Shown here: in pieces, positions 441 to 38,338 of the stretch
Position numbering within the stretch: position 1 is the stretch's first letter
Layout of the letters: every line of letters starts with the position of its first letter
IMG/VR virus record: IMGVR_UViG_2541047122_000029
From: a virus
Taxonomy: Duplodnaviria > Heunggongvirae > Uroviricota > Caudoviricetes
Direction: 5' to 3' (one strand)
DNA length: 39,214 nt
Notes under the pieces: generated by a model
What the model saw: the letters and a program-made list of their open reading frames with translations, nothing else
Databases searched by the model: none
Told to the model about the DNA's origin: nothing
Program-made: the position numbers and the translations under genes

Positions 441-2531
441 ATGTATGTCATTGCAAAAGAACTGATTGGCGCGCCCGGAATGCCTGCTACAACAAAAGGT
501 ATTCGCCAGGCATTACAACGTTACGTACAAGGGAAAAGCTGTTGTTCCCGTCGTCGCTCAGGCTCTAAAGCAACTGAATACAGCATCGACTGTTTACCTG
601 AAGTGACGCAGCAGGCATTACGTGAACGCTACGCCCTGCAACTGATGACGCAAAAAGTCGATGAATCACCGGCTCCGGTGGTGACAAAGGCCAGACGCTC
701 GCCTGCCGTGGTTGATGCGGTGGAGGCATATCGCGGATCACCACAACTGATGGTCGAACGCCTTAATGCCCTGACTGAAAACCAGCGCCAGGTGGCTGAT
801 GCACGAATCGCGATCGTCAGCGAAGTTCTGAAAGTCGCGCAACAACCTGGTTTCAGCTGTGCGAAGGCTATCCGGTTTATCGTTGACAACCTGGCACGTT
901 CGCAGCTGGACGAGCGCATTGTGGCAATGGTTGAGACGGCGAACGCCAAAAAGGGAAACAGCCGCGCGTTAAGTGAAATCACGCTGAAACGCTGGATTGC
1001 GGCCTTTAACAAGGCGCAGAACGCCGCTGAACGCCTGCTTTTACTGGCACCGGGTAAGCGCCAGGAAATAAAAGCCGAAGATATTAACTGGCTGCCCGAA
1101 TTTCTGGCGCAGTATCGCCAGTCAAACGGCCGACCAATGACCGAGGCTTACGAGGATTTTGTCGCTGAATGGCAGCACCGGCACGCTGATGAGCCTTATA
1201 TGCTCGATATCATGCCGTCTTATGACACCATTCGCCGCGCAATGAAGAAACTGCCGGAAGTGGTGAAACAAAAAGGCCGGGTGACCGGCAGTGAATACCG
1301 CCAGCTTGAGGGATTCACGCGCCGCGACTGGTCAAAAATGCCGGTGAATTATGTCTGGATTGGTGACGGTCACGGCATGAAGCTGAAATGCGCACACCCG
1401 GTTCACGGTCGGCCATTTGCACCGGAAGTGACCTTTGTTATCGACGGTGGCACGCGCTTTGTGGTGGGCTGGAGCCTTGACCTGGCTGAAAATGTTTTCG
1501 CCGTAGCCGGTGCCATACAGCACGGCATTCGCCATCACGGCAAACCGTTTCTGTATTACTCGGATAACGGCTCCGGGGAAACCGCCGACATCCTGGATAA
1601 GGAGGTTGTGGGGATACTGCCGCGACTGGGGATTAATCACCCGACCGGGATTGCCGGTAACCCGCAGGGACGGGGCATTATCGAACGGCTTAACCGCACA
1701 TTACCGATGCGCATAGCCCGTAAATACCGCACCTATTTCGGGAAAGGTGCAGATCGCGAGACGTTACGCAAAACCAACCGCGATTTACGCTCGGCATTTA
1801 CCGCCCTGCAACAGGGCAAACGGCTGAACGCCCGGCAACAGTCAGCGATGCGTGATTTACCGTCCTGGGCTGAACTGATTGATGCCATTCGTGATGGTGT
1901 TGAGTGGTACAACAACCGGCCGCACGATGAATTACCGGTGAAGCCGAACGGCAAGCATTACAGCCCGGCGGAGTTCAGAAAAAAACGCCTGGCGGAAGAG
2001 GACACGGAAATTGAATGGCTGTCCGATGTTGAGCTGCGGGATATGTTCCGGCCGATGGTGGAACGCCCTGTAAGACGCTGTGAAATACGCTGGCTGAATA
2101 ATATTTACTACGCGCCCGAGCTGCGTGACGAGCATGGCCGTAAGGTGCTTATCAGCTATGACATTCATGATGCCGAACGAATTACCGTACGTCGCCTGGA
2201 TGGCAGCGTGATTTGCGAGGCGGTATGGGACGGTAATAAACGCGAAGCCTTCCCGGTTAGCGCGGAATACTACAAACAGCAGCAACGCCTTAAAGGCATG
2301 CGTAAACGCGCAGAGGAAAAAATCCGTGATGCCGAGGATGAGGTTGTCAACGTGCTGGAGCACAAGCCGCAGGAGCCCTGGCTGGAAAACATATACCGCC
2401 CTGTGGGTAATACGGTGACCGTTCAGCAACCGGTCGCTGACGATGAACCTGATGAAGAATACGAGCGTAATTTCCAGCGGGGATTGCAGTTGCTGGAAGC
2501 GAAATTAAAAGAAAATGACCCGCTGGCCTGA
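441..2531 (+). CDS. A: Mu-type DDE transposase A
   Basis: 696 aa, similar in length and sequence to MuA as I recall it (central catalytic region, acidic C-terminus ...DDEPDEEYERNF); ATG 441 directly follows ner stop. Confidence 0.93.
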   Translation: MYVIAKELIGAPGMPATTKGIRQALQRYVQGKSCCSRRRSGSKATEYSIDCLPEVTQQALRERYALQLMTQKVDESPAPVVTKARRSPAVVDAVEAYRGSPQLMVERLNALTENQRQVADARIAIVSEVLKVAQQPGFSCAKAIRFIVDNLARSQLDERIVAMVETANAKKGNSRALSEITLKRWIAAFNKAQNAAERLLLLAPGKRQEIKAEDINWLPEFLAQYRQSNGRPMTEAYEDFVAEWQHRHADEPYMLDIMPSYDTIRRAMKKLPEVVKQKGRVTGSEYRQLEGFTRRDWSKMPVNYVWIGDGHGMKLKCAHPVHGRPFAPEVTFVIDGGTRFVVGWSLDLAENVFAVAGAIQHGIRHHGKPFLYYSDNGSGETADILDKEVVGILPRLGINHPTGIAGNPQGRGIIERLNRTLPMRIARKYRTYFGKGADRETLRKTNRDLRSAFTALQQGKRLNARQQSAMRDLPSWAELIDAIRDGVEWYNNRPHDELPVKPNGKHYSPAEFRKKRLAEEDTEIEWLSDVELRDMFRPMVERPVRRCEIRWLNNIYYAPELRDEHGRKVLISYDIHDAERITVRRLDGSVICEAVWDGNKREAFPVSAEYYKQQQRLKGMRKRAEEKIRDAEDEVVNVLEHKPQEPWLENIYRPVGNTVTVQQPVADDEPDEEYERNFQRGLQLLEAKLKENDPLA

Positions 2532-2602
2532 AATAAAAAAATAACCCGAGCGGCGACTCAGGTTATTTGATTAAACAAGGTATCAAATGAGAGGTTAATA
2601 AT

Positions 2603-3535
2603 ATGACTGATATTAACGATGTAATCAAGACCATTGATGAACTTATTGATGGCGGCGTACTGACACAGTATGCCATCGCCAGAGAGGCGGGAATTTCCGA
2701 CGGCACATTATCGGCTTTCCGTAAGGGAAAATATAAAGGCGATAACGCTGCTGTGGCTGCTTCCCTGCGTTCCTGGTATGAGAACTGGAATAAACAAAGC
2801 GCACTGCCGGAACCGCCGCAGTTTGTGGAAACGCAGACAGTCCAGGAGCTGCGCACACTGTTTCAGGCGGTTCGTCTGATGGGCTGTATTAACGTTATTG
2901 TGGGCGTACCGGGTGTGGGTAAAACGGCCACTGCCCGTAATTACTGCCAGGAGCAACCAAACACCTGGATGATCACCCTGTCACCCGCGCACTCCAGCGT
3001 CACGGAGTGTCTGCTGGAGCTGGCCGATGCGCTGGGGATTGATTACACCCGCGCGAACAAAGGGGCATTATCCCGCGCCATCCGCCGTCGCCTGATGGGA
3101 ACGCGTGGACTGGTGATTGTGGATGAGGCGGATCATCTTGGTATTGACGGTCTGGAGCAACTCCGGGCAATTCAGGACGCCACGGGGATCGGGATGGTGC
3201 TTATTGGTAACCCGCGCGGATTGTTTAAAGGTGGACGCCGCGCCTTTGATGATTTATCGCGCCTGTTCAGCCGTCTTGCCCGTACAAAACAACTTCGCAA
3301 GGCCAAAAAGGCGGATGTGCTGGCCATTGCCAGGGCGTGGGGGATCAGTGGTGAGGCCGAGCTGGCCGTCATGCAGGCTATCGCTGAAAAGCCGGGAGCG
3401 TTACGCGTTCTGACACATACGCTTAACCAGGCGTGGCTCACCGCCAGCGGTGAAGGTGCGGCGCTGACAGAAAAACATATTAATGCGGCCTTTAAAGAGG
3501 TTTATACCAACCCTGAATTACTCTCACAGGTGTGA
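2603..3535 (+). CDS. B: Mu B-like transposition ATPase / target DNA activator
   Basis: 310 aa; N-terminal HTH, Walker A GVPGVGKT, IVDEADHL Walker B-like motif, conserved LPEPPQFVETQTV; matches Mu B organisation. Confidence 0.9.
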   Translation: MTDINDVIKTIDELIDGGVLTQYAIAREAGISDGTLSAFRKGKYKGDNAAVAASLRSWYENWNKQSALPEPPQFVETQTVQELRTLFQAVRLMGCINVIVGVPGVGKTATARNYCQEQPNTWMITLSPAHSSVTECLLELADALGIDYTRANKGALSRAIRRRLMGTRGLVIVDEADHLGIDGLEQLRAIQDATGIGMVLIGNPRGLFKGGRRAFDDLSRLFSRLARTKQLRKAKKADVLAIARAWGISGEAELAVMQAIAEKPGALRVLTHTLNQAWLTASGEGAALTEKHINAAFKEVYTNPELLSQV

Positions 3536-3537
3536 TT

Positions 3538-3759
3538 ATGGCGGTATTTTATATTCCTGATATTTACGGACGCTTTTACCTGGTTAATTTCGATAACGTG
3601 AAGGTGATTTCACTGGCCGAAAATAAAGAATGTGGCGATTTACTTTTTGAATTTAATGACCGCACACGAATGGTGATATCTGCCGGACTTGATCGCGAAG
3701 GTGCGACAGAAGTTTACAGCGGAATATGCCGTTCTGTTGGTGCGAAACAAGTCAGCTAA
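3538..3759 (+). CDS. Hypothetical early protein
   Basis: Track ORF 3532-3759 starts at GTG; first ATG is at 3538. Tightly packed after B. Confidence 0.5.
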   Translation: MAVFYIPDIYGRFYLVNFDNVKVISLAENKECGDLLFEFNDRTRMVISAGLDREGATEVYSGICRSVGAKQVS

Positions 3760-4026
3760 ATGAGGTGTTATATGAATATGCAATCCTGCGGTAACAAAAT
3801 GAATTTATTCGACTCCCTGAACAGCGCGCGCCGTCTGACCGAACTTGCCGGTGCGGTACTGGAACGCAGTAAGCGCTATCCGCAACGTTTTGCACTGAAA
3901 ACCACGCCGCCGGTAGGCAACGTGCAGGGAACCGGTGAAATTGAAATCACCATACAGACCAACGGCCTGCGCCGCCGTGTGAAGGCCACCCGCATCAGCG
4001 GCTGCACGGTTTACTGGGAGGTGTGA
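3760..4026 (+). CDS. Hypothetical early protein
   Basis: 88-aa ORF. An internal ATG at 3772 preceded by GAGGTG may be the true start. Confidence 0.5.
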   Translation: MRCYMNMQSCGNKMNLFDSLNSARRLTELAGAVLERSKRYPQRFALKTTPPVGNVQGTGEIEITIQTNGLRRRVKATRISGCTVYWEV

Positions 4027-4027
4027 G

Positions 4028-4309
4028 GTGAAAAAAAATCTCATTGCATGGGCGTGGTCGAGTGGTCTTATTGAGTTTGGTTACGTCCTGCCGGAAGGTG
4101 CATTGCCGATAGTTGCCGGAAAGCCTGCCACGGTACGGCATGTGATTGAGGTTATGGCGCGTCATGGACGTGATGAACAGGAGCAGTTACTGGTTCCGGG
4201 GATACCGGAAGCGGTGACGGAGGAAGAAGCCTTTAATGCCATGATTCGGTTCTGCCGTGAGGTCAGACGCCGGGTCAGTTATCCAAACAGAACGAGGACC
4301 AGAGGATGA
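4028..4309 (+). CDS. Hypothetical early protein
   Basis: 93-aa ORF, GTG start preceded by GGAGGTG; contiguous with neighbours. Confidence 0.5.
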   Translation: MKKNLIAWAWSSGLIEFGYVLPEGALPIVAGKPATVRHVIEVMARHGRDEQEQLLVPGIPEAVTEEEAFNAMIRFCREVRRRVSYPNRTRTRG

Positions 4310-4578
4310 GTAAAGTCGTACGCATTATTTTCGAATACAAGGAGCACGTTATCCATAAAAACGCGGATGGAACAGTGCGCATGGGGATAAGTCTGGACAT
4401 ACGTTCAACCGGGATAAAGCAGAAAGGTGATGGACCTGCCATGATTTTTGGGGTGGTTATGCTCGCGGAAAGCAGAGACTTTGCTGAACTTGTGGCAATG
4501 AAAGCCAGTGCGCTCATGAAAGATATGAGCATGCGTTCCGGGGTTATTAAAGGTAATGAATTTAATCAGCAGGGGTAA
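4306..4578 (+). CDS. Hypothetical early protein (paralog 1 of tandem pair)
   Basis: 90 aa; N-terminus MSKVVRIIFEYKEH... is paralogous to the next gene. Confidence 0.55.
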   Translation: MSKVVRIIFEYKEHVIHKNADGTVRMGISLDIRSTGIKQKGDGPAMIFGVVMLAESRDFAELVAMKASALMKDMSMRSGVIKGNEFNQQG

Positions 4579-4582
4579 TTCC

Positions 4583-4876
4583 ATGAGCAAAGTACGCGTT
4601 ATTTTTGAATTTAAGCATGTTTCGCATGACGAAAAACCGGCAGGCAATGACTGTGTTGAAGTGCATGAAAAGATTGGTGTGGATGTAAAAACAGAACGTG
4701 ATACGAATAACAGGCCGACGTCACTCTGTGACGTTTATGTAAGTATTCTCCAGTATCACAGTCCTGAAATTATTCAGTTTCTCTCAGCGGAATTTCAGGC
4801 ATCTGTACAGGCTTTTGGGGCGGATGCCATCATTAAACGCCACCGCGTGCATAAAGCATCAGGCACACTGCAATAA
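4583..4876 (+). CDS. Hypothetical early protein (paralog 2 of tandem pair)
   Basis: Internal ATG of track ORF 4556-4876 gives MSKVRVIFEFKH..., matching the start of the previous gene. Confidence 0.55.
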   Translation: MSKVRVIFEFKHVSHDEKPAGNDCVEVHEKIGVDVKTERDTNNRPTSLCDVYVSILQYHSPEIIQFLSAEFQASVQAFGADAIIKRHRVHKASGTLQ

Positions 4877-4887
4877 GGAAAAACAAA

Positions 4888-5418
4888 ATGGCAAAACGCG
4901 TTACAAAATTAAAGGCCGCAGCCGAGGCTGCACCGCAGACCCGCGAAGAGGTCAGCCGCGATATCCGCACCCTGGGCGATATTCAGCGAGAGGCGCTGCG
5001 GCTGGAAACGGCGATGAATGATGAAGTGGCAGAAATCACCGCCCGTTATACGCCGCAAATTGAAAACCTTAAAAAAGAAATCAAAGTGCTTTTTAAGGGG
5101 ATTCAGGACTGGTGCAAAACCAACCGAGATGAGCTGACGAACGGCGGCAAAACAAAAACTGCCAATCTGACCACCGGCACGGTGTCATGGCGGCTGGGAA
5201 ATCCATCATGCAGCGTCAGCCGTGATGTGGAAGGCGTGATTGAAATGCTGCGCCTTATGGGGCTTGAGCGATTCATCCGCACGAAAGAGGAAGTGAACAA
5301 GGAAGCCGTCCTGGCGGAGCCGGATGCGGTGAAAGGCATTGCCGGTATAAAGGTGAATAAAGGCGCTGAAAGTTTTTATGTCGAGCCTTTTGAACAGGAC
5401 GCCGGACTGAATAAATAA
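4888..5418 (+). CDS. gam: Gam-like host-nuclease inhibitor (DNA-end binding protein)
   Basis: 176 aa; ...RLETAMNDEVAEI..., ...NRDELTNGGKTKTANLTTGTVSWR..., ...FIRTKEEVNKEA... match Mu Gam as I recall it. Confidence 0.85.
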   Translation: MAKRVTKLKAAAEAAPQTREEVSRDIRTLGDIQREALRLETAMNDEVAEITARYTPQIENLKKEIKVLFKGIQDWCKTNRDELTNGGKTKTANLTTGTVSWRLGNPSCSVSRDVEGVIEMLRLMGLERFIRTKEEVNKEAVLAEPDAVKGIAGIKVNKGAESFYVEPFEQDAGLNK

Positions 5419-5515: not shown

Positions 5516-6058
5516 ATGGCATATTTTTATTTCAAATTAGACATAGTGTACACAAATAAATATTTAACCGAATATCAGCGGGATGTTTTACCGCTACGCA
5601 ACAGTATTCTTCGGGCATTACTGAAAAATACAGGCGCTGCCGGATTGCGCTTAAAGCCGTTCGCCATGGACGTAATCAGTGAGTTTTATTTTTCTGGTTC
5701 TCTGCCTGCGGGCTGGCGTAAGCGCGATGATGTGGCTTTTATCGGGGGCGGACCGTGCTTTATTGCCAGACCTGATGAGTCATGCCCTGAAGGTCCGGCG
5801 ATTGCCGCAATGGTTGAAGCCGCTGAACGCGAGTTAAGAAAGCGTCCTGATTTCCTTGTCTGGCTCTGTGAAAAGCTGGGGGTAATGAGAATCCCCTCCA
5901 TGTTTAACACGGACTCCTGGTGGACCCCGTCACTCTCCCGTGATGCCCTGTGCGTGGTGTTTAAAGTAGGAACTTATGGCAGGGAAATAAAAGGGGGTAT
6001 TCCTGAAGAATGCCAGGAGATTAAACATTCTGAATATGTGGCGCTGACGGAGGAATAA
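5516..6058 (+). CDS. Hypothetical early protein
   Basis: 180-aa ORF after the only intergenic gap in the early operon (5419-5515); RBS TAAGGA upstream. Confidence 0.6.
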   Translation: MAYFYFKLDIVYTNKYLTEYQRDVLPLRNSILRALLKNTGAAGLRLKPFAMDVISEFYFSGSLPAGWRKRDDVAFIGGGPCFIARPDESCPEGPAIAAMVEAAERELRKRPDFLVWLCEKLGVMRIPSMFNTDSWWTPSLSRDALCVVFKVGTYGREIKGGIPEECQEIKHSEYVALTEE

Positions 6059-6061
6059 TTC

Positions 6062-6595
6062 ATGATTGATGCAAAAGTGCTTGAAGGGGTTAAAAACTGG
6101 CTGCGTATTTACGGACGTCTGACCTGCGGTATTCTGGCTGAAAAAATGAATATGCCGCCATCCTCCATGGTTTATTTTCTGCGTGATGCGGTTGATGCAG
6201 GCGTGCTGACGGAATGTAACGGTTTTTATGATATTCCGCGTCCCCGCCCGGTGCAGCCGGTTCGTCGCAAATGCAGCCAGGAGTCTGCGGCTGATGATGT
6301 TCAGTGGTGCAGCTTCAGAAAATCCCTGCCGTGGATTGAAGGGCATGATATTCCGTCGATGGCGTGGGAATTTGCTCAGGGCGTGCTGACCTGTGAAACC
6401 GTTTATGTGGTGGCTGAAGTTGATGAGCAGGCCATGAAAGAAGGCGTGCCCCAGTTTGTGATGTCGTATATCGACATCCGCCTGGGCGTCATTATCTGCG
6501 GTTTAAGCGGCTGGAATATCACCTCGCGCGTTCTGCGTTACCTGATTGTTGACCGGACGGCCGCGCCTGCCGGGATATCAGCGGAGGTGGCGTAA
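6062..6595 (+). CDS. Hypothetical early protein
   Basis: 177-aa ORF packed 3 nt after the previous stop. Confidence 0.6.
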   Translation: MIDAKVLEGVKNWLRIYGRLTCGILAEKMNMPPSSMVYFLRDAVDAGVLTECNGFYDIPRPRPVQPVRRKCSQESAADDVQWCSFRKSLPWIEGHDIPSMAWEFAQGVLTCETVYVVAEVDEQAMKEGVPQFVMSYIDIRLGVIICGLSGWNITSRVLRYLIVDRTAAPAGISAEVA

Positions 6596-7110
6596 TGTTC
6601 TTTAAAACATCAAACCCTTCCGCGCTGGCTGCGTGGCAAAAATACCAGCAGGACTGCCAGACGGTAAAAGATGAGGCGAAACGCCTTGAGGCCGTGCTGA
6701 ATGTTGCGTGCCGGTCGGTATTTGAATTCAGTATCAGTGGTTTTTGTTTTAAGGGACTGCGTTTTACGGAGGACAAATATCCTTTTCATCGTGATTTATG
6801 GCGAAAACCAACTGCGTCGAATGGCTGGAGCTGCACACCGCGCACATCACGTATTCCCAAAGCCCTGCGCGTTGCCTCTGACGAACTTAACAGTCTGTGG
6901 CGTGAATATTCGCCCGTCACGTATGCCAGAACCGATGCACTGTTGTTCTGGCTGGGCATTGATTTCTCGGCAATCCTGTTTGGCCCTGTGGAGTGGTTCT
7001 GCGTTGACGATGTGATTTACCTTCAGTGCGGCGTAAAACCCGCAAAACAGAAAATGACCGAAATTCTGTCTGATGAGTTTTATGCTGCTGAAAAGCGAGT
7101 CAGGGGGTGA
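6595..7110 (+). CDS. Hypothetical early protein
   Basis: 171-aa ORF; start overlaps previous stop (TAATG). Confidence 0.6.
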   Translation: MFFKTSNPSALAAWQKYQQDCQTVKDEAKRLEAVLNVACRSVFEFSISGFCFKGLRFTEDKYPFHRDLWRKPTASNGWSCTPRTSRIPKALRVASDELNSLWREYSPVTYARTDALLFWLGIDFSAILFGPVEWFCVDDVIYLQCGVKPAKQKMTEILSDEFYAAEKRVRG

Positions 7111-7113
7111 TGC

Positions 7114-7665
7114 ATGATGATATTACAACCCATGGGGAGAAAAGGCCGTGCACCCGCTCATGTTCGCGCATGGACACCTGAAGAAGATGCGCTGCTGATT
7201 GCGCTTTATCCATCCACCCCGGTTAAGGATATTGCTGTCAGGATAAAAAGAAGTTTCTGGGGTGTACATAACCGGATTGTTTTATTACGCGGTACTTACC
7301 CGGAGTTGCTCAAATGCAAACGCCTCAGATTTAAACCTGATGAAGATAAATTTATCCGAAAAAATGCCAGAACAATGACCGGTAAGCAAATAGGAGAATA
7401 TCTGGGGCGAGACCGGGATTCTGTCCACAATCGGGCGCGATATATTGGCGTAAGCATGAAAAAATACGGAGAGTTGCTGCCCTTCACCCGCATACCTGAC
7501 GATGATGTTCGTCTTATTCGTGAATTACGGGATGCTGAATCACCACGGCGTCTTACCTTTAGGGAAATCGGCGAGAAATTTGAATTATCCGAGGGCACGG
7601 TGAGTTTTATTTATCACCGTCGTCGGACTGCCGAAGATGTTGTATTACGGGAATTAATGCCATGA
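7114..7665 (+). CDS. Hypothetical protein with three tandem HTH-like repeats (putative DNA-binding)
   Basis: 183 aa; three repeats of about 45 aa (WTPEEDALLIALYP.., KPDEDKFIRKNARTMTGKQIGEYLG.., DDDVRLIRELRD..LTFREIGEKFELSEGTV); RBS GGGGGTGA upstream. Confidence 0.6.
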   Translation: MMILQPMGRKGRAPAHVRAWTPEEDALLIALYPSTPVKDIAVRIKRSFWGVHNRIVLLRGTYPELLKCKRLRFKPDEDKFIRKNARTMTGKQIGEYLGRDRDSVHNRARYIGVSMKKYGELLPFTRIPDDDVRLIRELRDAESPRRLTFREIGEKFELSEGTVSFIYHRRRTAEDVVLRELMP

Positions 7666-7973
7666 TAACGACATTATTTGTTGAATCAGATGAACCCCTT
7701 GTGTGTGCCGTCGGAATGCCGGTCTGTGGCGGAACGCTGACCGGTGTTTATTTCGGGGATTTGCGCGGTTATCCCTGGCATTCACTGAATGATGCTTTCC
7801 CGCCTGATATGGAGGCTGTCGTGCTGATTGTTCAGTATGGTGACCAACAGGAACTGCGCATCGGCCATATGGGGTATGAAGGCTTTTTTATTGATGAAGA
7901 AACCGGAGCCTGCCTTGAAGATGAGGACGGACAGGTGACGCACTGGTGCCATATTTCAGCTTTACCGGAATGA
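7662..7973 (+). CDS. Hypothetical early protein
   Basis: 103-aa ORF overlapping the previous stop by 4 nt. Confidence 0.55.
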   Translation: MITTLFVESDEPLVCAVGMPVCGGTLTGVYFGDLRGYPWHSLNDAFPPDMEAVVLIVQYGDQQELRIGHMGYEGFFIDEETGACLEDEDGQVTHWCHISALPE

Positions 7974-8338
7974 CGGGAGGTGAATGCGTGAGAAGTTATA
8001 TTGATAATGAAAAACTGAAGACAATCAGCGACTGTCTTAGCTTGCTGGCAAAAATAAAAGAAACCATTGAAGAGATTAAATTTCAGCTTGAATACGAACC
8101 CTGTGGCGATGATACATGGCGTAACTCTGCCAGAAAAGCACTGGCTGTCTTTCAGAAACAACGCCGGACTGTTGAATACCGCCTTGCTGTATTGCGCCAG
8201 GAGGAAAAGGAAAGAAATATAAGACGTCATGAACTCGTTAATGATTTTCTTGTTCGTGAATTAAAGGAGCGTGTGCCGGAGTCGGTATTTTTTGAGTGTG
8301 AGGCTGTTGCCCGTAGCAAAGCACTGGAAACTGATTAA
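7970..8338 (+). CDS. Hypothetical early protein
   Basis: In-frame ATG at 7970 overlaps the upstream stop (ATGA); track ORF 7946-8338 begins earlier; alternative GTG 7988 after GGGAGG. Confidence 0.5.
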   Translation: MTGGECVRSYIDNEKLKTISDCLSLLAKIKETIEEIKFQLEYEPCGDDTWRNSARKALAVFQKQRRTVEYRLAVLRQEEKERNIRRHELVNDFLVRELKERVPESVFFECEAVARSKALETD

Positions 8339-8350
8339 ACAGGCAGGTGA

Positions 8351-8686
8351 ATGATGAGTATTGAATTAAGATCGTCTTATGAATATCGTAAAATTCTCAT
8401 CGCCGGAGGCATGAAACCGGAAGATGCAGAAAAAATTGTTTCTTTTATGGATAAAGAATGTGACAAACGGGATATGCCAGAAATTATTATGGATGACATG
8501 ATTCTGCATTCAGCCGTAGCGTTAAGCCCGTTATGGATTGTGCATTCTCTTGCTGAAATTGCCAAAGGCACCGATAAACAGGCAGCTGTTGCTGCCCTTC
8601 AGACGCTTAATGAAATGCGTATATCTCCACGCCCGACATTAATACATATGATTCTCTCCAGTATGGAGGATAAAGCAAATGAATAG
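8351..8686 (+). CDS. Hypothetical early protein
   Basis: 111-aa ORF; AGGTGA RBS before the start. Confidence 0.55.
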   Translation: MMSIELRSSYEYRKILIAGGMKPEDAEKIVSFMDKECDKRDMPEIIMDDMILHSAVALSPLWIVHSLAEIAKGTDKQAAVAALQTLNEMRISPRPTLIHMILSSMEDKANE

Positions 8687-8876
8687 TCTACCCGCTGGAT
8701 GGGCGCGGCCACTAATGGCCAGGAAGCATCATTTTTTTAAAACAGGCGAAAATATCAGTATATGTGGACGGTGGTTATATCTGGCTCATAATCGCGAGCC
8801 GGATACATTTGAAAGCCCTGATGACTGTGCCGAATGCCGCAGAAGAGTGAATAAGGAGAAAGATAATGGACAATAG
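8679..8876 (+). CDS. Hypothetical small Cys-containing protein (possible zinc ribbon)
   Basis: 65 aa; Cys at ICGRW and CAEC; overlaps both neighbours. Confidence 0.45.
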   Translation: MNSLPAGWARPLMARKHHFFKTGENISICGRWLYLAHNREPDTFESPDDCAECRRRVNKEKDNGQ

Positions 8877-9162
8877 TTCTCTGTTGTTCTGGTGCTTATA
8901 TATCACATCCTTTTTCGGCGCATTTGTTATTACCCGGTGGTTATGTCGAAAAATCATCTGCTTTTTTGATAAAAGACATCCGGTTGAACGGGCGGCTGAT
9001 GCGCTCATTCAGCAGGCCATTGTGTTATATAGCGGTGAATTTTTCTGCCGAATAACAACCAGAGATGGCTGGCACATAATGATTATTCCACCAACACACC
9101 ATGCCCGGTGGGATGAGGCAGAAAAGGCTTTCCATGTCCGTAAAAAGGTAAATACGGTATGA
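8866..9162 (+). CDS. Hypothetical protein with N-terminal transmembrane helix
   Basis: 98 aa; hydrophobic N-terminus LLFWCLYITSFFGAFVITRWL. Confidence 0.5.
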   Translation: MDNSSLLFWCLYITSFFGAFVITRWLCRKIICFFDKRHPVERAADALIQQAIVLYSGEFFCRITTRDGWHIMIIPPTHHARWDEAEKAFHVRKKVNTV

Positions 9163-9668
9163 GAGGAAAACTGATATCCGCCATTCATGTGGCAAAGCGC
9201 GAGCTTGCCCTGGATGATGAGACTTATACATCCGCGCTGCTGGCAGCCACCGGCAAAACCAGCTGCCGGGATATGTCACCGGATGAGTTATCCCGCGTGC
9301 TGGATGTTTTCAAAAAACGCGGTTTTAAAGTGCGCCAGAAGCCGGTTAACCAGGCCTTAAAACCGGGTACGGTGACCGCCAAAATTCGTGCCATCTGGAG
9401 GGTGATGCACCGGCAGGGCTTTATCTCTGATGGTGCGGAAACCGCCCTTAACCGCTGGGTGAAATCGCAGACGGCCGCGCAGAACGGTGGCGAAGGTGTG
9501 GCAAACTGGCAGTGGCTGGAGCAACACCCCGCCCTGGCCTCAGATGTGCTGGAGCGTCTCAAGCGATGGCACCGCCGCAAAATGCTGGCCGCGATGGGAA
9601 TGCCCGAACGCACGCTGATGGGGTATGACGCCGTTTGCAGGCAGTATGAAAAATCACTTCCCCGTTAA
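9159..9668 (+). CDS. GemA-like protein (Mu gp16-like)
   Basis: 169 aa; N-terminal ...LISAIHVAKRELALDDETY... resembles the Mu GemA family as I recall it; last gene of the early operon, before a strong terminator. Confidence 0.55.
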   Translation: MRGKLISAIHVAKRELALDDETYTSALLAATGKTSCRDMSPDELSRVLDVFKKRGFKVRQKPVNQALKPGTVTAKIRAIWRVMHRQGFISDGAETALNRWVKSQTAAQNGGEGVANWQWLEQHPALASDVLERLKRWHRRKMLAAMGMPERTLMGYDAVCRQYEKSLPR

Positions 9669-9672
9669 CCCC

Positions 9673-9706
9673 AAATCCCGCCACAGCGCGGGATTTTTAT
9701 TTTAAA
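9673..9706 (+). terminator. Rho-independent terminator ending the early operon
   Basis: Perfect 9-bp stem AAATCCCGC (9673-9681) / GCGGGATTT (9688-9696), 6-nt loop, then TTATTTTAAA. Confidence 0.8.
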
Positions 9707-9737
9707 CTTACCGGGAACGCGAGAACCGGAGGCTGAT

Positions 9738-10163
9738 ATGGCAGAAACTCAGATGAGCATGTTTGGTGGTGACAGTGAGCAACTGCACGCCCTTATCGAC
9801 CGCCTTGATGACATCCCTGATGATGTTCTCAAAAAGAACTGGCCACGGACCCTGTCAGAACTGGTTGAAGTCACCGGCGCAGAACTTCAGCGTCAGGGGA
9901 TTGAGCCGGTACTGGCCGGTAAACTGGCACGCAAGGTGGCTGCGGCTCAGGCCGCCTATATGGGCGGACGGGGTTATTACCTGCCGGTCGGGGAATCTCT
10001 CTTTGCCGAGCTGCGAAACAATGAGATATTTTCGCGCTGGGACCGGGGCGAGAAAATTGAATCCCTTCGCCGACATTACCGGATGTCAGAAACCCAGATT
10101 TATACCGTCATACGTGAACAGCGCCGTCTGCATCTGGCAAGAACGCAACCGCCACTTTTCTGA
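9738..10163 (+). CDS. Mor/C-family transcriptional activator (middle/late gene activator)
   Basis: 141 aa; resembles Mu Mor/C (acidic N-terminus, C-terminal HTH ...SETQIYTVIREQRRL...). Only one member of this family is present in the window. Confidence 0.75.
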   Translation: MAETQMSMFGGDSEQLHALIDRLDDIPDDVLKKNWPRTLSELVEVTGAELQRQGIEPVLAGKLARKVAAAQAAYMGGRGYYLPVGESLFAELRNNEIFSRWDRGEKIESLRRHYRMSETQIYTVIREQRRLHLARTQPPLF

Positions 10164-10167
10164 TATT

Positions 10168-10181
10168 CCGCAAAGCCTGCC
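10168..10181 (+). promoter_or_regulatory. Candidate activator-binding motif of the lysis/late promoter
   Basis: CCGCAAAGCCTGCC, 54 bp upstream of the endolysin ATG; near-identical motif at 18095-18108 upstream of gene I. Confidence 0.4.
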
Positions 10182-10234
10182 GCCTTTCCTTCACCGTTAC
10201 GCTGACTCAGAGAACATCATGAGACAGCGTAACA

Positions 10235-10735
10235 ATGCCAAAACTCCCCGCACCACTGCGTAAAAAGCTGATTGCCCTTGTTCTGGCCGGTGCCGGGACG
10301 TTCACGATTGCCACGCATTACACCGGTTACTGGGAAGGGAAAGAAAACTCCACGTATATCGATCCCACCGGTACACCCACCATCTGTTACGGCCATACCG
10401 GCCCGGATGTGAAACCGGGTATGACCCTGACGGATGAAGAATGCCTGGAACTACTGGAAAAGGACATGAAATGGGCCTTTGCGGCCATTGATCGGCGTGT
10501 TCAGGTGCCGCTTACCCGTGGTCAGACGGTGGCGCTGGCTTCGTGGATCTTCTGGGCTGGTGAAACGAACTTCCGCAACTCCACGCTTCTGCGCCTGATC
10601 AATGCCGGGCAGATGCCCGCGTCCTGTAAGCAGTATATCCGCTGGATTTATTCAAAGGGGGTGAAACTTCCCGGCCTTGAGGCCCGCCGTTCGGCGGATG
10701 AATGGTTATGTCGCTACGACTTGCCGAAAGTCTGA
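10235..10735 (+). CDS. SAR endolysin (phage lysozyme, T4-lysozyme/GH24-like)
   Basis: 166 aa; N-terminal weakly hydrophobic signal-anchor-release segment LIALVLAGAGTFTIATHY; YWEGKENSTYIDPTGTPTICYGHTG contains the Glu-Asp-Thr catalytic pattern. Confidence 0.85.
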   Translation: MPKLPAPLRKKLIALVLAGAGTFTIATHYTGYWEGKENSTYIDPTGTPTICYGHTGPDVKPGMTLTDEECLELLEKDMKWAFAAIDRRVQVPLTRGQTVALASWIFWAGETNFRNSTLLRLINAGQMPASCKQYIRWIYSKGVKLPGLEARRSADEWLCRYDLPKV

Positions 10736-10808
10736 ACCGCTTCTGGCGACCGCTCATGATAGCGCTGCTGTGTGCGGTACTGCTGTTACGGGGTGTCCTG
10801 TGGCTGCG

Positions 10809-11198
10809 GTGAATAACGCCTTACCGGCCCTGATTGCCGGGGCGTGCATGGCGGCGCTGGGGATTATCGCTGTACTGGTTGCTGCGATATGGGGAATGCA
10901 CCAGAAGACGCAGCGCCTTGAGGACAATAATCAGGTACTTGTACGTGAGCGGGATGAGGCGCGTCAGGTGCTGGCAAATCAGCAGCACACCCTGCAACTC
11001 ATTTCACAAATCAGTGAGGCGGCCACGAATGAAAAGCAACAGAACATTCAGCACACCGAGGAGCAACAGAGCGTTGTCCGCCGGTCGCTGGCAGCAGTGC
11101 CTGCTGCCTCTGCCCCTGTTCCTGATGATGTGGCTGATCGGGTGCGCCGGGCCGTCTGTGAAATACGTGCCTGTGAAGCCGGTGCCGATCCCCGCTGA
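10809..11198 (+). CDS. i-spanin (Rz-like inner-membrane spanin)
   Basis: Within track ORF 10677-11198; N-terminal TM helix ALPALIAGACMAALGIIAVLVAAIW then Gln/Glu-rich coiled-coil. Start uncertain (GTG 10809 or ATG 10848). Confidence 0.65.
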   Translation: MNNALPALIAGACMAALGIIAVLVAAIWGMHQKTQRLEDNNQVLVRERDEARQVLANQQHTLQLISQISEAATNEKQQNIQHTEEQQSVVRRSLAAVPAASAPVPDDVADRVRRAVCEIRACEAGADPR

Positions 11199-11400
11199 AT
11201 GGCTGGCTGACTGCCTGGTCCCTCCTGCGCCGGAGCCGTTCACGTTTGGGGCATCGGTCACTTACAACCTGCAACTGCTGGCGGTGATCAAGAACTGCAA
11301 CGTGGACAAGGCCAGTATTCGTCGTCTGGAGGCGCGGCGACAACATGAATTTACTGATATGGCCGGAACGCCTGCTGTTCCGGCAGGAAAGACGAAGTAA
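11029..11400 (+). CDS. o-spanin (Rz1-like outer-membrane lipoprotein), overlapping the i-spanin in another frame
   Basis: Internal ATG of track ORF 10834-11400; signal peptide with lipobox LIGC, Pro-rich mature region VKYVPVKPVPIP; starts inside the i-spanin gene and extends past it. Confidence 0.7.
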   Translation: MKSNRTFSTPRSNRALSAGRWQQCLLPLPLFLMMWLIGCAGPSVKYVPVKPVPIPAEWLADCLVPPAPEPFTFGASVTYNLQLLAVIKNCNVDKASIRRLEARRQHEFTDMAGTPAVPAGKTK

Positions 11401-11410
11401 GGAAAAAGGT

Positions 11411-11638
11411 ATGGATGATTCAGATCGTGCTCAGGCTGTGATGGAGCGGGGATCAGAACGCGCCCTTTGTAACCGGCTGACACGTAAGCGCCGGGCAATG
11501 GATGCTCCGGGTAGACGTATTTGCGCGGACTGTGGCGGAGAGATCCCCGCCGCGCGTCTTGTTGCTGTGCCGGATGCCATCCGTTGTGTGAACTGCCAGA
11601 ACATCATGGAGGCCCGTCATGTGGGTCAGCATCGTTAA
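11411..11638 (+). CDS. TraR/DksA-type C4 zinc-finger protein
   Basis: 75 aa from ATG 11411 (RBS AAGGAAAAAGG); CADCGGEIP...RCVNCQ four-Cys motif. Confidence 0.6.
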   Translation: MDDSDRAQAVMERGSERALCNRLTRKRRAMDAPGRRICADCGGEIPAARLVAVPDAIRCVNCQNIMEARHVGQHR

Positions 11639-11930
11639 AGATTATGTTGTGCCGATCCTTTCGGCGACGGCAACCGCTGGCGGGATATTCATGGCGCTGA
11701 TGCGCAAAACGTTTGTCCCCCGCGAGGCCTTTGAAAAACTCTCCGACCGCGTTGAGAAGGTGGAAACCCGCCTGTCGTCACTGCCGACAGAAGCCGAGGT
11801 CAACCGTCTGAATGTGGAAATCGTGACCCTGCGGGGTGAACTGAAAACCACGAACGCCACGCTCCGCTCTGTCTCCTATCAGAACGAACTGCTGCTGGAG
11901 CAGGCTGTAAGGAAAAAAACGAATGAGTGA
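11619..11930 (+). CDS. Membrane protein with coiled-coil (possible lysis accessory/releasin-like)
   Basis: 103 aa; one N-terminal TM helix VVPILSATATAGGIFMALM then coiled-coil; lies between the lysis and packaging genes. Confidence 0.5.
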   Translation: MWVSIVKDYVVPILSATATAGGIFMALMRKTFVPREAFEKLSDRVEKVETRLSSLPTEAEVNRLNVEIVTLRGELKTTNATLRSVSYQNELLLEQAVRKKTNE

Positions 11931-12213
11931 TTTCATTACTGAAGATCAGCGTCTGGTCATTCTGCGGTCGCTGGCAGATTACAACGGTGAACTGGGTGAA
12001 TCCGTGCTCCAGGACTGTCTGGATGATTACGGCCACCGCGTGTCCCGCGACACCGTTCACACCCACATTGCCTGGCTTGCCGAGCAGGGACTGGTGCGCA
12101 AACGCGTTCTGATTAACGGTTATTTCATCGCGGAACTGACCGGCCGGGGGCAGGATGTGGCGGAAGGCCGCGCCAGCGTTCCGGGTGTGAAGAAACCACG
12201 CGCAAGGGGGTAA
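11923..12213 (+). CDS. Hypothetical winged-helix-like protein
   Basis: 96-aa ORF directly upstream of the packaging genes. Confidence 0.5.
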   Translation: MSDFITEDQRLVILRSLADYNGELGESVLQDCLDDYGHRVSRDTVHTHIAWLAEQGLVRKRVLINGYFIAELTGRGQDVAEGRASVPGVKKPRARG

Positions 12214-12215
12214 CG

Positions 12216-12797
12216 ATGGACAAGCCGACGCGTGGCCGCGTGCGCAAGGTGGATTTGCTCCCCGACAGCATCCGTAAGCCACTGCTGGAAATGCTGCGTG
12301 AAAAACGTCTGACGCAGGTCCAGATACGCGAGGAAATCAACCGTCTGATCCGTGAGGCGGGCCTGCCGGAAGAGCAGCAGCTTTCACCGGCGGCCATCAG
12401 CCGGGAAGCCTCCCGTAATGAGCTGATTGCCCGTAACCTGCGTGATTTACGCGAGCAGACAAAAGCCATGATGGCCGAACTGGGGGACAAGCCAACCGGT
12501 GAAACCACTGCATTGATCCTGGAGATGTCCCGCGCCCTGATGTACCGCCGTCTGCGTGCCGCGACCGAATCCCTGAACAGTGACAGCGACGTGGATATGC
12601 GTCTTATTAAGGACATCCTCCTGTCAGCACAGCGTGCGGAAAGTGCCGCCGAGCGCAGCATTAAGCGTGAAAAAGAAATCAGGGCTGCATTTGCTGAAGA
12701 GATGGCAAACGCCGTCACCGACGAGCTGCGCGGCGTGGACGGGATGAGTGAACAGCTTGAGTCCCGTATTAAGGGGATTCTGTTGGGTAAAGTCTGA
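12216..12797 (+). CDS. Mu gp27-like protein (putative small terminase subunit)
   Basis: 193 aa, highly charged and helical; immediately precedes the large terminase with an overlapping stop/start. Confidence 0.6.
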   Translation: MDKPTRGRVRKVDLLPDSIRKPLLEMLREKRLTQVQIREEINRLIREAGLPEEQQLSPAAISREASRNELIARNLRDLREQTKAMMAELGDKPTGETTALILEMSRALMYRRLRAATESLNSDSDVDMRLIKDILLSAQRAESAAERSIKREKEIRAAFAEEMANAVTDELRGVDGMSEQLESRIKGILLGKV

Positions 12798-14461
12798 TGA
12801 ATAACGCCGAAGAACTCTCCCCCTTACTGACGAATACCGTCTCCACCCGCAAAATTGATCTGGCCGGTGAAAAAGCCCTGCTGGGCGTGGATGTGCCGGA
12901 CAGCCTTGATTTGCCCGGTGATATGCCGGTATTTCTGGATTATCAGGCCCGCTGGTTTGAGGATGAAAGCGAGGTCTGCATCGCGGAAAAATCCCGCCGC
13001 ACCGGGCTTACCTGGGCGGAAGCCGGGCGTAACGTCATTACCGCTGCAAAACCGAAGCGGCGCGGTGGCCGCAATGTGTTTTATGTGGGGTCAAAGCAGG
13101 AGATGGCGCTGGAATATATTTCTGCCTGTGCACTGTTCTCCCGTGCCTTTAACCAGCTGGCAGATGCTGATGTGTATGAGCAGACCTTCTGGGATCGGGA
13201 TAAAAAAGAAGAAATTCTGACCTACATGATCCGCTTTCCGAACAGTGGATTCAAAATTCAGGCACTGTCTTCCCGTCCATCAAACCTGCGCGGCCTTCAG
13301 GGGGATGTGGTGATTGATGAAGCCGCGTTCCACGAGTCACTGGATGAGCTTCTCAAGGCGGCAATGGCGCTTACCATGTGGGGCGCGCGCGTGCGTATTA
13401 TCTCCACGCATAACGGCGTCGATAATCTGTTTAATCAGTACATTCAGGAAGCCCGCGAAGGGCGCAAGGATTACAGCGTCCACCGCATTACCCTGGATGA
13501 TGCCATTGCGGACGGGCTGTACCGTCGTATCTGTTATGTCACCGGCCGCGAATGGTCACCGGAAAGCGAGCAGAAGTGGCGTGATGATCTCTACAAAAAC
13601 GCCCCGACCCGTGAGGATGCCGACGAGGAATACGGCTGTATCCCGAAAAAATCCGGCGGTGCCTATATTCCTCACGCGCTTATTGAAATGGCGATGATCC
13701 GCGACATCCCGATTCTGACGTTTGAAGCCCCGGACGACTTCATCAGCCGTGCCGCATGGCTGCGTGAATCGGAAGTTTTAACCTGGTGTGAAGAACATTT
13801 AAAACCGCTTACAGAGAAATTAAATCCCCGTTCCCGCTTCAGCTTCGGGGAAGATTTTGCCCGCACCGGTGACCTGTCCTGCTTTGTGCTGCTGGAAATC
13901 ACCGAATCCCTGGCAAAACGCGAGGTGTTTCGCGTGGAGCTGCGTAACCTGCCATATGCCCAGCAGGAGCAGGTGATGATGTACATCCTGACCCGCGTTC
14001 CGGCGCTGACTGGCGCGGCGTTCGATGCCACCGGTAACGGCGGCTATCTGGCCGAAGCCGCGCTGCTGGCCTTTGGCCCGGACATCATCGACTGCGTGAT
14101 GTTATCGCCGAAGTGGTACGGCGAGTGGATGCCAAAACTGAAGGCCGAGTTTGAAGATCAGAATATCCTCGTCGCCCGCCATCAGACCACGCTTGATGAT
14201 TTGCGCCATGTGAAGGTGGTGAACGGTATCCCGCAAATCGACAAGGGGCGCACGAAGGACCAGAACGCAACGGCTGTGAACGCCCGCCGCCATGGTGATT
14301 TTGCCGTGGCGCTCTGTATGGCAAACCGGGCGTCATACATGGAGGGTTTCATCCTGGATGAATCAGCCTGTCAGGCGCTGCCGGAGCGGTCGCGGGCCAT
14401 GGAGGGCGGTTATCGTGATGACGATGAGGCATATCATGAATTTGATCGGGGGTGCTGGTAG
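12797..14461 (+). CDS. Terminase large subunit (Mu gp28-like)
   Basis: 554 aa; ATPase region followed by nuclease-like C-terminal region; position before the portal. Confidence 0.85.
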   Translation: MNNAEELSPLLTNTVSTRKIDLAGEKALLGVDVPDSLDLPGDMPVFLDYQARWFEDESEVCIAEKSRRTGLTWAEAGRNVITAAKPKRRGGRNVFYVGSKQEMALEYISACALFSRAFNQLADADVYEQTFWDRDKKEEILTYMIRFPNSGFKIQALSSRPSNLRGLQGDVVIDEAAFHESLDELLKAAMALTMWGARVRIISTHNGVDNLFNQYIQEAREGRKDYSVHRITLDDAIADGLYRRICYVTGREWSPESEQKWRDDLYKNAPTREDADEEYGCIPKKSGGAYIPHALIEMAMIRDIPILTFEAPDDFISRAAWLRESEVLTWCEEHLKPLTEKLNPRSRFSFGEDFARTGDLSCFVLLEITESLAKREVFRVELRNLPYAQQEQVMMYILTRVPALTGAAFDATGNGGYLAEAALLAFGPDIIDCVMLSPKWYGEWMPKLKAEFEDQNILVARHQTTLDDLRHVKVVNGIPQIDKGRTKDQNATAVNARRHGDFAVALCMANRASYMEGFILDESACQALPERSRAMEGGYRDDDEAYHEFDRGCW

Positions 14462-17960: not shown

Positions 17961-18094
17961 TTGTTTAAGGTATGCAAATGCATTACCTTACCCCCTTCAG
18001 GCGCGTGTCGTGATTTTCTAACCTGTATTTAACGGGCTTTAAAATCTGCGTGAAGCGCCTTTGTATTTTTCCCCTGGAAGCACTTCCTGAAATC

Positions 18095-18108
18095 CCGCAA
18101 AACCCGCC
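18095..18108 (+). promoter_or_regulatory. Candidate activator-binding motif of the head-gene late promoter
   Basis: CCGCAAAACCCGCC in the 176-bp gap upstream of gene I; shares CCGCAAARCCYGCC with 10168-10181. Confidence 0.4.
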
Positions 18109-33526: not shown

Positions 33527-34087
33527 ATGCTGATTGGCTATATACGCGTATCAACAAATGACCAGAACACAGGTTTACAAAGAAATGCGCTGGAATGTGC
33601 AGGATGTGAGCAGATTTTTGAAGACAAAATGAGTGGTAAAACGACACAGCGGCCGGGACTGAAGCGGGCACTGAAGAAACTAAAACCCGGTGACACGCTG
33701 ATGGTCTGGAAACTGGACAGGCTGGGGCGCAGTATGCGCCACCTTGTTGCGCTGACAGATGAATTACAGCAACAGGGGATAAATTTTCGTAGTTTTACTG
33801 ACAACATTGATACGTCAACCCCCATGGGGCGCTTCTTTTTTCACATAATGGGTGCGCTGGCAGAAATGGAGCGTGAATTAATTGTCGAACGGACACGGGC
33901 TGGTCTTGCAGCTGCCCGTGAAAGGGGACGAACCGGCGGCAGACCCCGCCGTCTCACGCAGGAACAATACGAGCAGGTCGGGCGTTTACTGGCCGGGGGT
34001 GTCAGTCGAAGACAGGTGGCACTTATTTTTGATATCGGTCTTTCAACCCTTTATCGTTATTATCCTGCGAGCGTTTCGGAAAAATAA
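33527..34087 (+). CDS. gin: Gin/Hin/Cin-family serine DNA invertase
   Basis: 186 aa; resolvase-type catalytic N-terminus MLIGYIRVSTNDQNTGLQ (catalytic Ser), C-terminal HTH; RBS AAGGAAGG upstream. Confidence 0.9.
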   Translation: MLIGYIRVSTNDQNTGLQRNALECAGCEQIFEDKMSGKTTQRPGLKRALKKLKPGDTLMVWKLDRLGRSMRHLVALTDELQQQGINFRSFTDNIDTSTPMGRFFFHIMGALAEMERELIVERTRAGLAAARERGRTGGRPRRLTQEQYEQVGRLLAGGVSRRQVALIFDIGLSTLYRYYPASVSEK

Positions 34088-36226: not shown

Positions 36227-36231
36227 AAAAA

Positions 36232-37446: not shown

Positions 37447-37647
37447 ATGTATCGAAACATACGGTGCCGACACTGCAATAAGCTACTGGCACGGGCCAGT
37501 TTCAGTTATCTGGAAGTAAAATGTCCGCGCTGTAAAACCCTCAATCAAATCACATCTCCGAGCGCCACAGAGCACCCCACATACACAAGGAAATCCTGTC
37601 GTGGGGAACAGAAAGCAAGTCACATCCCGTATCATCAGCACGCCTGA
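37447..37647 (+). CDS. com: Com-like zinc-finger translational activator of mom
   Basis: ATG 37447 (RBS AGGAGG) inside track ORF 37402-37647; [13 protein letters not shown]...[12 protein letters not shown] matches Mu Com (IRCKNCNKLLFKA...IRCPRCKRH) as I recall it; overlaps the next gene. Confidence 0.75.
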
Positions 37648-38338
37648 ACTTATTCGCTATAACGACAATATCGTTGGTTATGGCTCCCGTGAGTTGCGGG
37701 TTGAGACAATAAGTTGCTGGCTGGCCAGACTGGTCATCGTCAATAAACATTACAGCCACCGTTTCGTAAATAACTCCTACCTTCATCTGGGCATATTTTC
37801 AGAACGGGAGCTGGTTGGCGTAATGCAATGGGGCTATGCCCTTAATCCAAACAGTGGTGCACGCGTCGTAACGGGCACGCGGAACCGTGAATATATGGAG
37901 CTTAACCGGTTATGGCTGCATGACTGTATGCCGAGAAACTCCGAATCAAGGGCAATCAGTTACGCGCTCAAGCTAATCAGGCAGCTTTATCCGCAGGTAC
38001 AGTGGGTTCAGTCGTTTGCAGATGAGCGTTGTGGCTGTCTTGGTGTCGTGTATCAGGCAAGCAATTTTGATTATGTAGGCAGCCACGAATCAACATTCTA
38101 TGAACTTGATGGCGAGTGGTATCACGAGATTTGCAGGAATGCCATTAAACGAGGCGGACAGCGAGGTGAACATCTGAGGGCTAATATCGACAGAGCCAGT
38201 GTTCATAAATTCCGTCAGTTTCGTTACATCCGGTTTCTGAACAAGAGGGCCAGAAAACGCCTCAACACAAAGCTATTCAAAGTCCAGCCTTACCCAAAAC
38301 CACAAACAGTTAAAACTGGTTTAAAAGAGAGTGAGTGA
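37601..38338 (+). CDS. mom: Mom-like DNA modification protein (anti-restriction)
   Basis: 245-aa ORF overlapping the end of com; ...[16 protein letters not shown]...[23 protein letters not shown] resembles Mu Mom as I recall it. Start uncertain (GTG 37601 in track). Confidence 0.75.

Follow-up and report, generated by a model that had tools for sequence, protein, structure and literature searches.

The window, meaning the whole stretch of 39,214 nucleotides (nt) analysed here (IMG/VR record IMGVR_UViG_2541047122_000029), is a Mu-like prophage of the Escherichia coli O157 'Sp18' type; Sp18 itself was considered intact by Asadulghani et al. (PMC2669165). The gene under study coincides exactly with an open reading frame (ORF) at positions 7114-7665 on the + strand and encodes a basic protein of 183 amino acids (aa; isoelectric point, pI, 10.2), whose RefSeq entry (WP_000973023) is labelled 'DNA-binding protein'. 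This segment occurs at 100% identity in many O157:H7 chromosomes, and Stx-phage records carry the region as an 'inserted Mu-like phage'. On the + strand, the left part of the window runs from a ner-like helix-turn-helix (HTH) gene through MuA, MuB, small ORFs, gam and a gp11-like gene to the ORF directly upstream of the studied gene, which is itself followed by another ORF, more small ORFs, gemA, a Mor-family gene, lysozyme (lys) and the late genes. A Shine-Dalgarno-like AGGGGG lies 7-12 nt 5' of the start codon, 3 nt lie between this start and the end of the ORF before it, and the gene's own stop codon overlaps the start of the next ORF as ATGA. Because of these three features the gene is assigned to the early polycistron, its translation being coupled to that of its neighbours, in agreement with a first-pass annotation that had located it in the early operon.

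The same annotation had described the protein as three tandem repeats of about 45 aa, each with an acidic start (EED, DED or DDD) followed by an HTH-like segment. The acidic starts are present at residues 22-25, 75-78 and 128-131 (P22-E-E-D25, P75-D-E-D78 and P128-D-D-D131), and the P-[ED]-[ED]-D motif recurs with a period of exactly 53 aa; the figure of 45 aa holds for the folded units (~40-45 aa each) and not for the period. Smith-Waterman alignment of the protein with itself yields a best off-diagonal score of 57, compared with 26.8 +/- 4.3 (maximum 45) for 200 shuffled sequences, none of which reached 57. Tests of single-sequence repeat pairs give 7/1000 for repeats 1 and 2 (R1-R2), 11/1000 for R2-R3 and 179/1000 for R1-R3, the last being not significant. 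With profiles drawn from an alignment of 25 full-length homologues (A1), hhalign pairs R1 with R2 at a probability of 98% (E 1.7e-13) and R2 with R3 at 54% (E 1.3e-4) with the register kept; the R1-R3 match is weak, the HTH helices nonetheless falling in register. The tandem organization is thus borne out by self-alignment and by the profiles of both adjacent pairs. Repeats 1 and 2 are unmistakable duplicates of each other, and repeat 3, far more diverged than either, is a diverged or differently derived unit of the same architecture. A search for a tandem repeat at the DNA level within the gene found none.

AlphaFold2 run on A1 predicts, with a mean predicted local distance difference test (pLDDT) of 84.9, three bundles of three helices each, at residues 22-59 (helices 22-31, 37-43 and 48-59), 75-110 (75-84, 90-97 and 101-110) and 129-169 (129-140, 149-156 and 160-169), plus an additional helix at 173-181. 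The HTH-like segments first noticed in the sequence are thereby recovered in the predicted structure, and the protein is, as modelled, composed of three tandem HTH-type domains. The predicted template modelling score (pTM) of 0.54 fits an arrangement of beads on a flexible string.

Conservation within A1 is distributed unevenly over this architecture. In the N-terminal arm, residues M2, L4, P6, G11, P14 and H16 are conserved and PHROG 38779 matches residues 2-56; the arm may contact DNA. The linker between repeats 2 and 3 is found also in the distant full-length relatives P0082, P0135 and P0165 and, judged by this conservation, is a family signature. Conservation across the family peaks in helices 1-2 of repeat 3 (DxDVxLIRELRD ... 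LTFREIGEKF), where D129, D131, L134, R136, L138, R139, D140, F149, I152, E154, K155 and F156 are invariant. The C-terminal helix is a candidate protein-protein or dimerisation element. Coordinates are collected in Table 1.

Table 1. Features of the studied gene and of its surroundings in the window.
Feature	Position	Strand	Remarks
Whole gene	7114-7665	+	183 aa plus stop; basic triple-HTH protein, PHROG 323 (D5-like)
N-terminal arm, aa 1-18	7114-7167	+	Predicted disordered; pLDDT <50 at residues 1-10
Repeat 1, aa 19-60	7168-7293	+	Myb/SANT/GcrA-like three-helix HTH; W20-T-P-E-E-D start; helix 3 aa 48-59
Repeat 2, aa 72-112	7327-7449	+	Myb/GcrA-like three-helix HTH; F73-K-P-D-E-D start; helix 3 aa 101-110
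R2-R3 linker, aa 113-124	7450-7485	+	K117 and G119 invariant in A1; 'S-L-x-K-C/Y-G-D/E'
Repeat 3, aa 125-170	7486-7623	+	Diverged HTH; P-D-D-D start; helix 3 (aa 160-169) variable
C-terminal helix, aa 173-181	7630-7656	+	Conserved TAEDxxLRELxP (A1)
Divergent mosaic patch	7201-7650	+	Sliding identity vs L044: 71-85% nt; flanks 92-97%
gam	4888-5418	+	
gp11-like gene	6062-6595	+	
ORF directly upstream of studied gene	6595-7110	+	
ORF directly downstream of studied gene	7662-7973	+	
gemA	9159-9668	+	
Mor-family (C-like) gene	9738-10163	+	
gin	33527-34087		Right end
mom	37601-38338		Right end

Results of profile searches show that residues 2-182 match positions 80-256 of PHROG 323 ('transcriptional regulator, D5-like') with an E value of 6.3e-58. 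The same PHROG is matched by D5 of phage T5 (1e-71), by gp9/E8 of phage Mu (5e-29) and by the P2-like homologues Shae_phiSM and P0027, and on this profile evidence the protein belongs to a phage family that is already catalogued. An exhaustive profile search collected 12,956 proteins at E <= 1e-3, many of them long proteins with 4-10 copies of W-T-x-E-E-D...I-A-x-x-L-G-R-S...A-x-x-R-A-x-x-L-G, some of which are fused to helicases. These long multi-repeat relatives clear the Pfam Myb thresholds and sometimes match GcrA; metagenomic P0033 carries a ResIII/Helicase_C N terminus followed by nine repeats. BFVD likewise holds many similar multi-HTH phage proteins, some named 'D5 protein', 'Myb-like' or 'GcrA'. 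Repeats of this same Myb-like type are fused to helicases in both P0033 and T5.108 (positions 1546-4332 of T5 locus L059), a protein whose annotation reads 'replication origin binding' and which has InterPro matches to SANT/Myb and helicase domains.

The repeats had initially been likened to Myb/SANT or sigma region-4 repeats, a likeness that stands in its first half for repeats 1 and 2. When compared with the PDB, the family profile aligns with c-Myb R2R3 (PDB 1H88 and 1MSE; PF00249) at an E value of 4e-6, both repeats and the linker between them being in register; the two proteins share three-helix bundles in which helix 3 is the presumed recognition helix. Unlike c-Myb, which is eukaryotic, the protein comes from a bacterial virus, has an extra third HTH that is not Myb-like, and has its tryptophan triad cut to one Trp or Phe per repeat: W20 and F73 keep the first aromatic alone, and the other core positions, read from the sequence, appear aliphatic. 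Precomputed PF00249 matches exist in several homologues of 42-48% identity.

Repeat 3 shows a weak resemblance to sigma-70 region 4 and to AsnC-type HTHs, and on its own retrieves generic HTH matches only from PDB sequences (best E 0.007). A sigma-70 factor is rejected, since the region-4-like HTH at residues 145-169 scores 23.3 bits against a cutoff of 24.1, TIGR02937 reaches 18.9 against 42.9, and no region 2 is present. Membership of the AsnC/Lrp family is likewise rejected: the HTH_AsnC-type match (residues 131-163) is below threshold (21.5 against 27) and the all-helical model has no alpha/beta RAM domain. The label 'AsnC family protein' that homologues bear at NCBI is therefore a misnomer, one of several inconsistent database labels for the gene ('AsnC family', 'SANT/Myb' and 'DNA-binding protein').

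The sole characterised relative is T5 D5 (T5.118, YP_006946), which the T5 record annotates as DNA-binding, as needed both for the replication of DNA and for late transcription, and as having a part in shutoff; a passage of PMC12630848 attributes these roles to McCorquodale 1979. Alignment of the two by hhalign (96.6%) spans residues 17-171 of the query, that is, all three repeats, and residues 71-232 of D5. The D5 gene also adjoins replication genes and is expressed ahead of the late genes. In contrast to the studied protein, D5 comes from a virulent phage and, at 255 aa, is extended by an extra segment at the N terminus and a tail at the C terminus. Mu gp9 (E8, Mup09, NP_050613), also the product of an early-operon gene of a Mu-type phage, aligns with repeats 2 and 3 (BLASTP 32% identity, E 2e-9; hhalign 97.8%), repeat 2 corresponding to the first repeat of gp9. 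However, gp9 comprises 99 aa and two repeats only, and of the residues that are invariant in repeat 3 of the 183-aa family it lacks most. The gp9 gene lies upstream of gam, whereas the studied gene lies downstream. The window ORF at 4583-4876, directly upstream of gam and thus in the slot of gp9 in Mu, gives no BLASTP alignment to gp9, and the D5-like gene therefore occupies different early-region slots in Mu and in Sp18-type phages. Literature searches found no publication on the 183-aa protein or on Mu gp9.

Homologues occur in two contexts, Sp18-type Mu-like prophages of E. coli and Salmonella and P2/186-like prophages of Salmonella and Citrobacter. In the former, one and the same pair of ORFs flanks the gene in every case. 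The gene is found in >200 complete E. coli genomes, most O157:H7 Sp18-type prophages among them; with 270 copies in complete E. coli genomes, where MuB has 277 and the upstream ORF 274, it is almost never lost and is near-core in these phages. A scan of genome contigs returned one distant locus, which was uninformative. The P2/186-like homologues share 41-48% identity, and at each of the 12 P2-like loci that the searches found, the gene has a Dam-type methyltransferase gene (PF02086) close on its 5' side and replication gene A close on its 3' side. The order in L002-L007 and L050-L055 is Dam-type methyltransferase, 0-2 small ORFs, D5-like triple-HTH gene and replication gene A, and in L002-L007 the stop of the HTH gene overlaps the start of gene A. 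In the Salmonella P2-like prophage L002, which carries one of these homologues, a gene for a Fic-domain protein (11444-12841) lies just past the replication module.

This synteny bears on the idea that the protein could be a GcrA-like reader of adenine-methylated DNA (Dam GATC sites or Mom-modified DNA) that couples modification to transcription or replication. Such a reader would be in keeping with the structural match to GcrA, with the Pfam GcrA match of the multi-repeat relative P0036, with the methyltransferase gene lying immediately or almost immediately upstream in the P2-like loci, and with the Mom gene encoded in the window. However, Caulobacter GcrA (PDB 5YIU; PF07750) combines a single such domain with a sigma-70-binding C-terminal domain; the studied protein has no PF07750 match and no sigma-70-binding domain, and it is not counted as a GcrA. 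In the P2-like phage Shae_phiSM the homologue also precedes gene A and no Dam is annotated within the stretch examined, Mu-like phages are without a Dam gene, and the association in P2-like loci is perhaps mere inherited gene order. A methyl-DNA reader is accordingly regarded as very improbable.

A second ('B') allele of the gene shares 72-73% protein identity with that of the window, although the flanks of the phages that carry it are 92-97% identical, the divergence being sharply delimited to ~7201-7650. The early region is more generally a patchwork when compared with L044 and L031, other replaced or absent blocks (5551-6000, 7651-8400 and 8551-9150) varying by relative. A ratio of non-synonymous to synonymous substitution rates (dN/dS) of 0.19-0.25 against the diverged alleles shows that both alleles are under purifying selection. 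Differences between them concentrate in helix 3 and the turn preceding it, which over all three repeats differ at 22 of 41 positions, compared with 5 of 55 in helices 1-2 (Fisher p = 2e-6). This concentration probably reflects sequence-selective binding that differs by allele.

The same pattern can be read as the trace of an arms race, in which a host-directed or counter-defence factor reprograms host promoters or binds a defence or nucleoid protein through its variable helix 3. Such a factor might be expected in the mosaic, accessory-rich early region where the gene lies; the divergence patch is limited to the gene, the substitutions cluster on an exposed helix, the gene moves among unrelated phage types (Mu-like, P2-like and T5-like), and no repeated target motif was found within the phage. 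However, the overall dN/dS of 0.2 points to purifying and not to diversifying selection, the divergent patch resembles ordinary mosaic recombination of neighbouring segments, and D5, on the account of the T5 record, works on the phage's own programme. A host-directed role is thus considered unlikely.

The first-pass annotation had further proposed that the protein might be the missing second Mor/C-like activator. The premise of this proposal is partly sustained, in that the window contains one Mor-family gene only, closer to Mu C (39% identity, E 4e-35) than to Mu Mor (27%), and the same holds for all related loci. A search for a second such gene in the window found none, its sole further match being an alignment of 39 aa between Mu Mor and the ORF at 3538-3759 (E 0.01), which is taken as chance. 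The C-like gene stands directly before lys (the interval from the gemA stop to the lys start being 9668-10235) and is parted from gemA by a strong intrinsic terminator, a perfect dyad at 9673-9696 (AAATCCCGC-CACAGC-GCGGGATTT) followed by a T tract. With a terminator ahead of the C-like gene, RNA polymerase must be brought past the element or started after it. The sequence GCGGGATTTTT is kept, together with most of the T tract, in every related locus examined, Salmonella included, and the full element GCGGGATTTTTATTTTAAACTT is kept in the E. coli loci. The layout resembles that of Mu Pm (positions 9170-9248 of Mu locus L058), where, according to a passage of PMC4390567, the Mor site overlaps the early terminator.

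The dyad does not recur in the manner of an operator: neither its full form nor its conserved right half has a second copy in the window. Its 9-nt arm AAATCCCGC recurs at 12989, 24375 and 36229 and as two tandem copies at 18090-18107, just 5' of a gene that begins at 18137; the one at 36229 lies in a terminator-like hairpin, and allowing one mismatch gives 26 matches compared with 12.7 expected. These copies might be sites of the C-like activator or mere terminator stems. In locus L027, a 445-aa IS4-family-like transposase gene (10056-11393) lies between gemA and the C-like gene and replaces the left arm of the dyad; the extra DNA at this place was considered as a possible Mor gene and rejected as an IS4-type insertion.

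The studied early protein might substitute for Mor as a middle-stage activator, either activating the C-like gene or allowing read-through at the dyad and T tract. The solitary C-like gene, the conserved terminator ahead of it and the Pm-like layout would all fit such a substitution, as would the D5 requirement in T5 late transcription and the near-core status of the gene in Sp18-type phages. The protein is, however, unrelated to Mor and C (PF08765). Both are, as it is, small phage HTH proteins encoded in the same genome region, and they act on promoters of host RNA polymerase, but they are dimers with a dimerisation domain and one HTH; no Pfam Mor match was found, and hhalign against the Mor-family protein of the window gives a probability of 0.1%. 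In addition, Mu, which has both Mor and C, keeps the D5-like gp9, and homologues are carried by P2-like phages with a complete late control of another kind (L002 and L003 have an Ogr/Delta-type gene, by a weak Pfam match); the occurrence of the family is therefore not tied to a missing Mor. The window allele has no -10-like hexamer at the right distance from the dyad, whose centre is merely ~53 nt from the ATG; alleles show no strict co-variation (in L023 and L025 the studied gene is 92-93% and the Mor-family gene 83-87% identical); and terminator read-through combined with autoactivation by the C-like protein is simpler. The identification as a second Mor/C-like activator is thus unsupported, and substitution for Mor by this unrelated early protein seems improbable. 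More doubtful still is the specific form in which the Mor tier has been lost in Sp18-type phages and the triple-HTH protein supplies it at 9673-9707, switching on the C-like activator. If true, an unrelated DNA-binding fold would have taken over a Mor-type step, echoing the need for D5 in T5 late transcription.

By analogy with D5, the protein is better regarded as probably an early, basic, all-helical D5-like DNA-binding accessory factor that tunes the replication and transcription programme; confidence in a triple-HTH, D5-like DNA-binding protein is much higher than in this exact role. It is a temperate-phage member of the D5-like family, built from two Myb/SANT/GcrA-like repeats and one diverged HTH. 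Each helix 3 would in turn contact its own stretch of duplex DNA, in the manner of Myb R2R3, and a conserved surface for a partner protein would be made up of the invariant helix 1-2 face of repeat 3, the KxG linker and the C-terminal helix. By binding phage (or host) DNA in early lytic development, the protein may tune replication and the early-to-late programme; in this explanation it is not the primary late activator. An accessory role in replication or transcription is favoured because of the T5 D5 analogy and the recurring placement of such genes beside replication functions, which include MuA/B in the same operon, gpA in P2-like phages, a ligase/helicase/primase/polymerase cluster in T5 and the helicase fusions P0033 and T5.108.

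Several observations weigh against this explanation. With the single sequence, the Pfam matches to Sigma70_r4, HTH_AsnC-type, MarR_2 and Myb are all below gathering thresholds, the Myb score being 16.9 bits where PF00249 / PF13921 require 24.4 and 22.9. D5 is acidic to neutral (pI 6.3) and shares ~24% identity with the studied protein, and functional transfer from so distant and acidic a relative is weak. No repeated candidate operator was found in the intergenic regions of the window, and the k-mers common to these regions are A/T-rich words and AAATCCCGC only, the latter largely a terminator stem, neither being a convincing target site. The variability of helix 3 could alternatively come from diversifying pressure on a surface that binds protein, as in anti-defence, and not from DNA specificity. 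The Mu early region between B and mor, which contains gp9, is dispensable for plaque formation, which would speak for an accessory role.

On its sequence, the gene adds a three-repeat member from a temperate phage to a family already catalogued, and is a fairly ordinary candidate regulator and not a new kind of system. What is gained is a corrected annotation, a fold, a family, a testable mechanism and the allelic pattern of helix 3, together with the recognition that T5 D5 and Mu gp9/E8 are built of tandem Myb/GcrA-like HTHs and belong to one family, which passes among Mu-like, P2-like and T5-like phages. DNA targets of any D5-like member would help to explain how replication, early shut-off and late transcription are coupled through D5. 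In practice the gain, a candidate regulator, is modest.

At the window's right end, a 679-aa ORF (34187-36226) lies between gin and mom and has two domains, SASA (sialate O-acetylesterase, NanS-like) and DUF6645; it resembles a cargo gene (moron) of the Mu-like phage.
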